From a candidate division FCPU426 bacterium (lineage in GTDB: Bacteria; Oederibacteriota; Muellerivitia; Muellerivitales; Muellerivitaceae): 64,000 bases of DNA. Of the stretch, positions 55,191 through 55,873 are shown piece after piece. How positions within the stretch are numbered: position 1 is the stretch's first letter; each line of letters starts with the position of its first letter. The translations under genes were made by a program, and so were the position numbers. The notes under the pieces were generated by a model, which was not told the DNA's origin, searched no databases, and saw only the letters and a list, made by a program, of their open reading frames with translations. The DNA lies in contig CAVRAL010000001.1 in the NCBI GenBank assembly GCA_963719085.1, forward strand, positions 320,001 to 384,000, written 5' to 3'.

Positions 55191-55745
55191 ATGACCCCCA
55201 AGATCAAAGCCAAGGTTCTGGAAGCCCAGGATATGGAGCGGGCCTTGACCCGCATCGCCCACGAGATTTTGGAGCGCAATAAGGGCATCGAGGACTTGGT
55301 TTTGGTCGGCATCAAGAGCCGGGGCGAGGTTTTGGCCGAGCGGCTGGCCGCCAAGATCAAATCCATCGAAGGCCACGGGGTTCCCTTTGGGGCGCTGGAT
55401 ATCACCTTTTACCGCGACGACGCCGGCACGCATAAGCCCGAAAAGGCGCCTGAGGAAACCGAACTGCCCTTCGACGTGAACAAAAAAAAGGTCATCCTGG
55501 TGGATGACGTGCTTTATACCGGGCGCTCGGCGCGGGCGGCCATCGATGAAATCATCGACTTTGGAAGACCTTTGGCCATTCAACTGGCGGTTTTGGTGGA
55601 CCGGGGCCACCGGGAATTCCCCATCCACGCCGATTATGTCGGCAAAAACATACCCTCGTCCTCAAAAGAACAAGTGCTGGTCCGGGTCAAAGAAAAAGAC
55701 GGCGTGGATGAAGTCGTCATCGCGGAAAAAGAAGGCGCCGAATGA
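55191..55745 (+). CDS. pyrR: pyrimidine operon attenuation protein / uracil phosphoribosyltransferase
   Basis: [39 protein letters not shown]. Confidence 0.97.
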
Positions 55746-55873
55746 AAAAAACTACGCACGCTAAGACGCAAAGACGCCAAGGAAGGCAAAGATTTTTGTT
55801 CGATGCCTCCCTAAGAGCTTCGTCGTTCTTAGCGTCTTTGCGTCTTTGCGTGAGCGGTTGGTGGGCCGTATGA
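55742..55873 (+). other. 43-codon mini-ORF spanning the palindrome, ATGA overlaps at both ends
   Basis: hand translation [16 protein letters not shown]...LCVSGWWAV*. Confidence 0.6.
55757..55852. repeat. palindrome family A variant
   Basis: CACGCTAAGACGCAAAGACGCCAAG ... CTTAGCGTCTTTGCGTCTTTGCGTG. Confidence 0.9.

Follow-up and report, generated by a model that had tools for sequence, protein, structure and literature searches.

A 43-codon frame overlapping pyrR and pyrB crosses a palindromic repeat in a candidate division FCPU426 bacterium and is probably a translational relay

Where the stop of one gene overlaps the start of the next, the outputs of the two neighbours are believed to be tied. 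A mobile repeat landing in such an overlap should break the tie, and the pyr operon of a candidate division FCPU426 bacterium (GenBank assembly GCA_963719085.1, contig CAVRAL010000001.1) raises the question of how a joint so interrupted may still be coupled. The window, i.e., the whole stretch of DNA analysed, comprises 64,000 nucleotides (nt) of this contig (positions 320,001 to 384,000 of the forward strand); positions given below without a contig number are those of the window. Between its pyrR and pyrB genes lies a hairpin-forming palindromic repeat, which is crossed from end to end by a mini open reading frame (mini-ORF) of 43 codons (55742-55873, + strand).

This mini-ORF overlaps the pyrR stop with its ATG and the pyrB ATG (55870-55872) with its TGA (55871-55873), both overlaps taking the form ATGA. 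An earlier note, made from the sequence alone, had described such a doubly coupled frame over the whole hairpin, and its coordinates and both overlaps were confirmed. pyrR occupies 55191-55745 (+; stop TGA at 55743-55745; NF003549, 246 bits, cut-off 138) and pyrB occupies 55870-56802 (+; stop TAA at 56800-56802; NF002032, 415 bits, cut-off 263). The repeat, a member of subfamily C to which no strand is assigned, extends from 55750 to 55859; its arms are at 55750-55796 and 55813-55859, with octamer-unit cores at 55759-55781 and 55828-55850. The predicted RNA fold of the repeat region reaches -69.8 kcal/mol (z = -7.1; 0/200 shuffles equally stable) and that of the gap alone -58.6 kcal/mol. The mini-ORF is the sole sense frame open over the pyrR-pyrB gap.

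The mini-ORF is probably a translational relay, passing ribosomes from pyrR to pyrB through a selfish hairpin repeat, with its frame kept by selection. This reading draws on the anatomy of the joint, the ancestral overlap of the two genes, the recurrence of such inserts and the conservation of their frame. The proposed steps are that: (i) a palindromic repeat, non-coding and dispersed, whose arms consist of 8-base units, would have been inserted into the 4-base ATGA overlap coupling pyrR and pyrB; (ii) a ribosome terminating at the pyrR UGA would restart on the overlapping AUG; (iii) translation of the 43 codons through both arms would unwind the hairpin; (iv) termination on the UGA lying over the pyrB AUG would be followed by restart on pyrB. 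The pyrB start would be weak otherwise and is predicted to be buried. It is preceded, at a distance of 4 nt, by a weak Shine-Dalgarno (SD)-like GGTGGG (55860-55865, +; anti-SD duplex -5.4 kcal/mol), and the predicted cost of opening its start region (-18..+12) is 21.8 kcal/mol, which places it among the most buried start sites. The peptide itself would have no function, selection acting on translation in the right frame from joint to joint.

An equivalent relay may operate at the pyrB-pyrC joint, where a second element is found. A mini-ORF of 50 codons (56789-56941, +) starts there with an ATG 11 nt upstream of where the pyrB stop begins and ends with a TGA overlapping the pyrC ATG at 56938. 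The palindromic repeat that it crosses (56799-56923, no strand assigned) belongs to subfamily A, and its left end provides the pyrB stop TAA (as TTAACC). It must be noticed that the last PyrB codons of this genome are unlike those of relatives without a pyrB-pyrC insert. The three joints of the pyr operon are each occupied by a copy of a palindromic repeat, the third being that between pyrC and carA (58240-58331, no strand assigned), where no sense frame is open across the element. This last joint is an overlap in no relative examined that lacks a long insert (gaps of 3-58 nt).

Was the interrupted joint an overlap before the repeat arrived, as the earlier note had supposed? The pyr locus was compared in 31 family genomes, with stops and starts placed by homology (L numbers designate the loci of relatives). 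A separate search with PyrB yielded only distant relatives from many phyla (54-66% identity), which were left aside. Among 24 evaluable pyrR-pyrB joints, 8 are ATGA or GTGA overlaps, 4 are gaps of 7-26 nt and 12 contain inserts of 97-187 nt; among 27 evaluable pyrB-pyrC joints, 10 are overlaps, 3 are gaps of 17-30 nt, one is a gap of 55 nt and 13 contain inserts of 81-214 nt. The supposition thus agrees with the 8/24 and 10/27 joints that still overlap within the family. Since the joints of more distant relatives are likewise overlapping or abutting, the overlap can be taken as the ancestral state. On the PyrB tree, insert and overlap states alternate inside genera g3, g5, g10 and g13, which indicates repeated insertion events at both joints. 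Moreover, the subfamily present at pyrR-pyrB is not the same in the two species of the genus to which the window belongs. As a separate observation, two loci of genus g12 (L051 and L052) have a pyrR-pyrB gap of 26 nt with an 8-codon mini-ORF, whose start is 3 nt past the pyrR stop and whose TGA lies over the pyrB ATG; their pyrB-pyrC gap of 30 nt resembles joined element ends and may be the footprint of a lost element.

Octamer-armed inserts comparable to that of the window number 14 over both joints, with units such as CGCCAAGA, CACCAAGA, CGCGAAGA, CGCCACGA, CGCAGAGG, CACGAAGG and CTCCGTGA. Octamer unit, length (gaps of 93-148 nt) and encoded peptide all vary, and the whole-gap folds of the relay inserts have predicted energies of about -37 to -63 kcal/mol. 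A doubly coupled mini-ORF is present in 13/14 of them; it starts between -1 and -14 relative to the upstream stop, and its TGA overlaps the downstream start. At pyrR-pyrB this holds for 8/8 inserts (L031, L032, L033, L036, L038, L043, L047 and L050), with 39-51 codons; the start over the pyrR stop is ATGA or TTGA in 7/8 and ATGTTTAA in 1/8. At pyrB-pyrC it holds for 5/6 (L031, L038, L043, L049 and L050), whose mini-ORFs start at -5, -11 or -14. In the remaining insert (L044) the frame ends on ATGA and has internal ATGs only, i.e., downstream coupling only. One insert of another palindrome family, at the pyrB-pyrC joint of L036, is doubly coupled as well. Concerning the pyrB start codons, TTG is used in 3/8 genomes with an octamer-armed pyrR-pyrB insert (L032, L043 and L050), and ATG or GTG in 12/12 family genomes with a pyrR-pyrB overlap or short gap.

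The conservation of the frame can be expressed as follows. In the 15 coupled or downstream-coupled inserts, 16/45 sense frames are open across the whole gap, and 15 of these 16 are the frame ending on the downstream start (binomial P = 7.7e-7 vs 1/3). From one relative to another, mini-ORFs of the same joint encode unrelated peptides. Two pairs of homologous elements are distinguished by compensating indels (+1, -1, +1, -1 in the first; -1, +1, +12 in the second). The lack of relatedness of the peptides together with the compensating indels leads to the conclusion that the frame is kept, not the product. The same data bear on the idea that the mini-ORF encodes a functional small protein, e.g., a small membrane peptide, basic at its N-terminus and hydrophobic at its C-terminus. 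The peptides are indeed alike in being basic over the first half and hydrophobic over the second, a feature due to the arm sequences; against this idea stand the unrelated peptides found at the same joint, the local frame shifts by compensating indels and a Pfam search in which no family was matched by the peptides of either mini-ORF of this genome (pyrR-pyrB and pyrB-pyrC). A coding function of this kind is thus given very little probability.

Is such coupling a general property of the repeat? Two tandem 8-base units of the form C-G/A-C-N-A-A-G-N were searched across the 3.04-Mb genome, with a shuffled contig as control. Matches are scattered genome-wide, and the shuffled contig gave 4. At least 79 copies of the palindromic repeat are present, i.e., 79 arm pairs forming elements whose median length is 94 nt, and 35 left arms are unpaired. 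Three subfamilies can be distinguished among the elements, the pyrR-pyrB copy belonging to that in which the arms are of CGCAAAGACGCTAAGACGCCAAGG and the terminal repeats are longer. The elements are imperfect palindromes in many extragenic copies, and they have terminal inverted repeats. A search for a Y1 transposase (IS200/IS605-type, RAYT; PF01797) gave 0 matches in this 99.08% complete genome, the control search being positive in 6/14 known genomes; at the pyr joints the element was not observed in tandem. Elements located between co-directional genes amount to 70/79, which does not differ from the 82.6% found for all adjacent pairs (P = 0.10) and is modestly enriched vs pairs with gaps of at least 60 nt (P = 0.003).

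The earlier note had proposed a genome-wide count of coupled frames against shuffled controls. Left flanks, elements and right flanks were therefore shuffled among the 70 co-directional elements, 20,000 times. In 13/70 cases (5.06 expected, P = 5e-5), a frame that passes through the element is opened by a start lying at -15..+10 relative to the upstream stop. Full continuity of the frame to the downstream gene, i.e., double coupling, is found in 8/70 vs 1.47 expected, a value reached in 0/20,000 permutations. These eight comprise 3 mini-ORFs (0.87 expected, P = 0.05) and 5 in-frame continuations into the downstream ORF. The three mini-ORFs are located at pyrR-pyrB, at pyrB-pyrC and at the joint between the B and C permeases of a peptide/nickel-type ABC transporter (73 codons). 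The earlier note had staked its inference on coupled frames exceeding chance, and this is what is observed, both in this genome and in the 13/14 octamer-armed inserts of relatives. At any given element a doubly coupled mini-ORF is a rare chance event (0.87 expected over the 70), but a single one among 79 elements is unremarkable; it is the comparative data that lift the case above chance. As a side observation, one repeat copy on the minus strand (22788-22914) is traversed by an open frame that begins with an ATG, 5 nt past the point where the upstream stop begins, and leads into a downstream ORF of 649 residues. The N-terminus of this ORF resembles a lipoprotein signal peptide (...FGFFLFFLSGC), and the repeat appears to be situated in this leader or to provide it.

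A different picture emerges for the sequences flanking the insert. The near-direct repeats reported by the earlier note at the two junctions do exist: GCCGAATGAA at 55737-55746 (+), which covers the end of pyrR and the start of the mini-ORF, and GCCGTATGAA at 55865-55874 (+), which covers the stop of the mini-ORF and the start of pyrB, are identical in 9/10 bases. Such a 10-base repeat is nevertheless at chance level, since a flank match of at least 9/10 occurs in 5/79 elements vs 6.2% for mismatched flank pairs, and the GCCGAATGAA/GCCGTATGAA repeat is by itself without weight as evidence. Over the 79 elements, flank repeats of 8, 10 and 12 bases are in no excess over mismatched flank pairs. 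Of the overlap suggested to have been duplicated around the element, only the tetranucleotide NTGA recurs: it is found on both sides of 7/8 pyrR-pyrB octamer-armed inserts, while longer flank repeats are at chance and the pyrB-pyrC inserts show no such NTGA repeat. It can be added that two copies on contig 1 (402882-403009 and 407765-407883) have a common left flank (..TCATTTTATA..), one of them with a perfect 10-base flank repeat, the sole 10/10 among the 79.

The mini-ORF could be a mere by-product: its ATGA ends would be a legacy of a duplicated or retained joint, its arms would be free of stops by luck, and expression would not be affected. The chance level of the 9/10 flank repeat and the presence of uncoupled inserts at the same joints fit this explanation, as does the fact that units such as CGCCAAGA and CGCAAAGA are stop-free in all six frames when repeated, a property shared, by our own estimate, by about half of random 8-mers. 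What it does not account for is that 13/14 octamer-armed inserts are doubly coupled, that 15/16 open frames are the required one, that indels compensate each other and that the genome-wide excess is equalled in 0/20,000 permutations. A by-product is considered quite improbable.

The inserts of other kinds allow a further comparison. There are 12 other inserts longer than 40 nt at both pyr joints. Coupling is found in 13/14 octamer-armed inserts vs 1/11 others (Fisher test, P = 3.5e-5; the 55-nt gap of L055 being left out). In L035 and L057 a bridging frame runs 5 or 14 nt into the downstream gene before it stops, i.e., the coupling is loose. An SD-like motif is retained by the downstream genes after every insert. 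The repeats with GAGTTAGG or GAATTAGG arms constitute a kind of their own, found at the pyr joints and after pyrC (L032, L034, L035, L045, L054, L057 and L058); the first TAG of these repeats is the stop of the upstream gene, and reading through is not possible in most copies.

Several points weigh against the relay and must be set beside the above: (i) 11/12 of the other inserts are not strictly coupled, most of them having the TAG-bearing GAGTTAGG or GAATTAGG arms and two being GC-rich palindromes, and 9/12 are without any relay frame, the operon being still present; since the operon persists with uncoupled inserts, the relay is not indispensable; (ii) at the start downstream of uncoupled and coupled inserts, respectively, the median SD energy is -8.05 vs -6.55 kcal/mol (P = 0.08) and the median cost of opening the start is 9.25 vs 11.5 kcal/mol (P = 0.14), neither trend being significant; (iii) the 14 octamer-armed inserts come from genomes that are kin and represent about 12-13 elements distinct in sequence or length rather than 14 independent trials, the kinship-reduced estimate being (1/3)^12 = 2e-6; (iv) double coupling is absent from 62/70 copies located between co-directional genes of this genome; (v) frames open from arm to arm in the 70 co-directional elements number 59/210 in sense vs 88/210 in antisense, and as sense frames are not enriched there is no general pressure for readable elements; (vi) the genome-wide test relies for its gene starts on a crude gene caller based on codon usage (2438 genes), which recovers the three pyr starts, the starts at the pyr, permease and secreted-protein loci not depending on it; (vii) that the frame is translated, that ribosomes reinitiate at both of its ends and that selection is the reason for its conservation are points that we infer.

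Translation of the frame could also be selected for another reason, i.e., ribosome cover of the 124-nt spacer, which would protect against Rho-dependent polarity, nuclease cleavage or hairpin pausing, pyrB initiating alone. Such protection would fit the conservation of the frame equally well, and it agrees with the SD-like motif kept downstream of every insert; the loading of Rho on untranslated RNA is named as the cause of polarity in PMC12548453. On the other hand, the 62/70 copies between co-directional genes that are untranslated have no visible harm. Moreover, in 14/15 open-frame cases the stop of the mini-ORF is exactly on the downstream start (+1), a match that protection alone does not need. 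Because the stop falls exactly on the start, ribosome cover fits less well, and it is held to be unlikely, the relay remaining the preferred explanation.

The location of the hairpin in a pyr operon calls for another comparison, since in Bacillus-type pyr operons PyrR sites are found between genes too. The hairpin might be a second PyrR-dependent attenuator or another pyr regulatory RNA, all the more so as pyrR is preceded by a putative PyrR-binding leader (55046-55169, +) with a terminator-like hairpin and a T run, i.e., an attenuator. This leader matches Rfam RF00515 over the full length of the model (37.8 bits, E = 0.0085, under the gathering score of 54). It is the sole Rfam match within 54500-58500 in a search up to E = 1, so that nothing is matched at the element, and the scan for terminators and promoters gave no T run or terminator-like site at the pyrR-pyrB element. 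Furthermore, the element is a dispersed repeat with 79 copies, absent from the pyrR-pyrB joint in 12/24 family genomes and replaced by unrelated repeats in others. The reading as a PyrR attenuator was dropped, the only RF00515 match being the leader at 55046-55169, and it retains next to no probability. In the loop of the pyrB-pyrC element a promoter-like site with 9/12 consensus positions is present, which is at chance level.

Upstream of the leader, a sigma-70-type promoter-like site of the pyr operon (55014-55041, +) consists of TTGACA, 16 nt and TATAAT and has 12/12 consensus positions, being a consensus match only. Downstream, pyrC (dihydroorotase; 56938-58221, +; TIGR00857, 443 bits, cut-off 279) is followed by carA, the gene order of the operon being pyrR-pyrB-pyrC-carA. 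Judging from relatives, the start of carA is possibly a GTG near 58357 (MASKMKKAV...) rather than the ATG at 58369.

Do overlapping joints outside the pyr operon behave in the same way? At the joint between ABC permeases B and C, 16 of 24 evaluable loci have the downstream ATG over the upstream stop and no repeat insert (ATGATTAA in most), 6/24 have long inserts and 2/24 have short non-overlapping gaps. In this genome (contig 1, 1166560-1166672) the 73-codon relay mini-ORF opens on the ancestral downstream ATG. In the relatives (L140-L164), 3/6 long inserts, with octamer repeats of the CAGTCGGC type, are read in frame as N-terminus, and 2/6 long inserts are uncoupled. A joint located before a gene for a secreted protein (contig 4, 975549-975653; L167-L193) was also evaluable at 24 loci; here too the downstream ATG overlaps the upstream stop. 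Among the 20 loci with more than 60 nt from the upstream stop to the aligned protein, 19 keep the downstream frame open, with an ATG at -1 to -17 and through the insert into the signal peptide. Most of these inserts have palindromic repeat arms of many different kinds, the joint being an insertion hot spot. These joints agree with one another: at sites that were formerly overlaps, repeats appear to persist in a translated form, either as relay ORF or as in-frame leader.

A bolder extension would be that the octamer-armed palindromes are translation-transparent selfish DNA, in which being read by ribosomes evolved as part of the spread through operons. It is based on the following features: the units are free of stops, the left end yields a stop (by TTCACC to TTAACC) and the right end has an SD-like AGG or GAGG at start distance. 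This extension is proposed tentatively. It may also be, with the same reserve, that such elements colonise overlapping joints in the form of relay mini-ORFs, and N-terminal leaders in that of in-frame inserts.

The near-constant readable form of the very stable hairpin repeats that have landed repeatedly in the two pyr joints of this family is comparative evidence for selection on coupling itself. The inserts also constitute natural constructs, i.e., relays of 40-50 codons, for asking whether coupling works by RNA unfolding or by passage of the same ribosome. Concerning annotation, relay frames are not to be called genes, and care is needed with the starts of genes located behind such repeats.

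The closeness to known systems remains to be considered. A literature search found no paper linking repetitive extragenic palindromic (REP) or miniature inverted-repeat transposable elements, or the octamer motif, to translational coupling. REPs, bacterial interspersed mosaic elements and REPINs of proteobacteria are likewise short imperfect palindromes in many copies, mostly intergenic and often within operons; they differ in that the arms here are tandem octamers, no RAYT gene was found in the genome and REPs are described as untranslated. Liang, Rudd and Deutscher reportedly observed in 2015 that REPs near stop codons stall ribosomes. Rickettsia palindromic elements, on which Ogata et al. 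worked in 2000, are said to survive in translated sequence by staying in frame. The elements of this genome are likewise read in frame in N-terminal leaders, but the pyrR-pyrB element is in neither protein, being a separate ORF between genes.

An intergenic small ORF acting through stem-loops on downstream translation is known from Salmonella, where the translation of mgtQ, located between mgtC and mgtB, governs stem-loops controlling the downstream gene (PMC8092293). Unlike the mini-ORF studied here, mgtQ is an ORF dedicated to regulation, in which residues are sequence-specific; it is neither a repeat element nor doubly overlapped. In integrons, short ORFs in attI1 (ORF-11, ORF-17 and ORF-18) and inside attC (Hanau-Bercot 2002; Jacquier 2009) relieve a stem-loop barrier by termination-reinitiation, according to the review PMC8876359. 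The likeness is that a non-functional short ORF over a hairpin site receives ribosomes from the preceding stop, prevents the stem-loop and delivers them to the next gene. The hairpin of the window is, however, a genomic repeat in a biosynthetic operon, without attC architecture or integrase context (an integrase was not searched for), and the integron evidence is experimental whereas that obtained here is comparative.

Mycobacterial interspersed repetitive units (MIRUs) described by Supply et al. 1997, as summarised in PMC12548453, contain an ORF coupled to the neighbouring gene, so that insertion has a minimal effect on expression; in the part of PMC3184786 that deals with them, filled sites have tetranucleotide repeats and the ends of the ORF overlap the adjacent genes. 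The two kinds of elements share several properties, i.e., dispersed short repeats within operons, location at gene starts or overlapping joints, and a coupled internal ORF with -4 spacing; empty sites occur in relatives, and to the tetranucleotide repeats of filled MIRU sites may correspond the NTGA flanking 7/8 pyrR-pyrB inserts. They differ in structure, the elements described here being long palindromes with perfect, 8-base-periodic arms and very stable hairpins, whereas MIRUs are tandem minisatellite units. They also differ in occurrence: the present elements belong to an uncultured, unrelated lineage, 62/70 copies are uncoupled and a doubly overlapping ORF of MIRU type is found genome-wide in only 3/70 copies. 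The two are thus likened by design, not by sequence.

This comparison leads to the conclusions that: (i) the relay design is already known, MIRUs and the short ORFs of integron attC sites being clear precedents; (ii) the present case extends the MIRU idea to palindromic repeats; (iii) what sets it apart is the very stable palindromic repeat of another kind, the uncultured lineage, the recurrent filling of the same pair of joints and the comparative evidence for selection on the frame.

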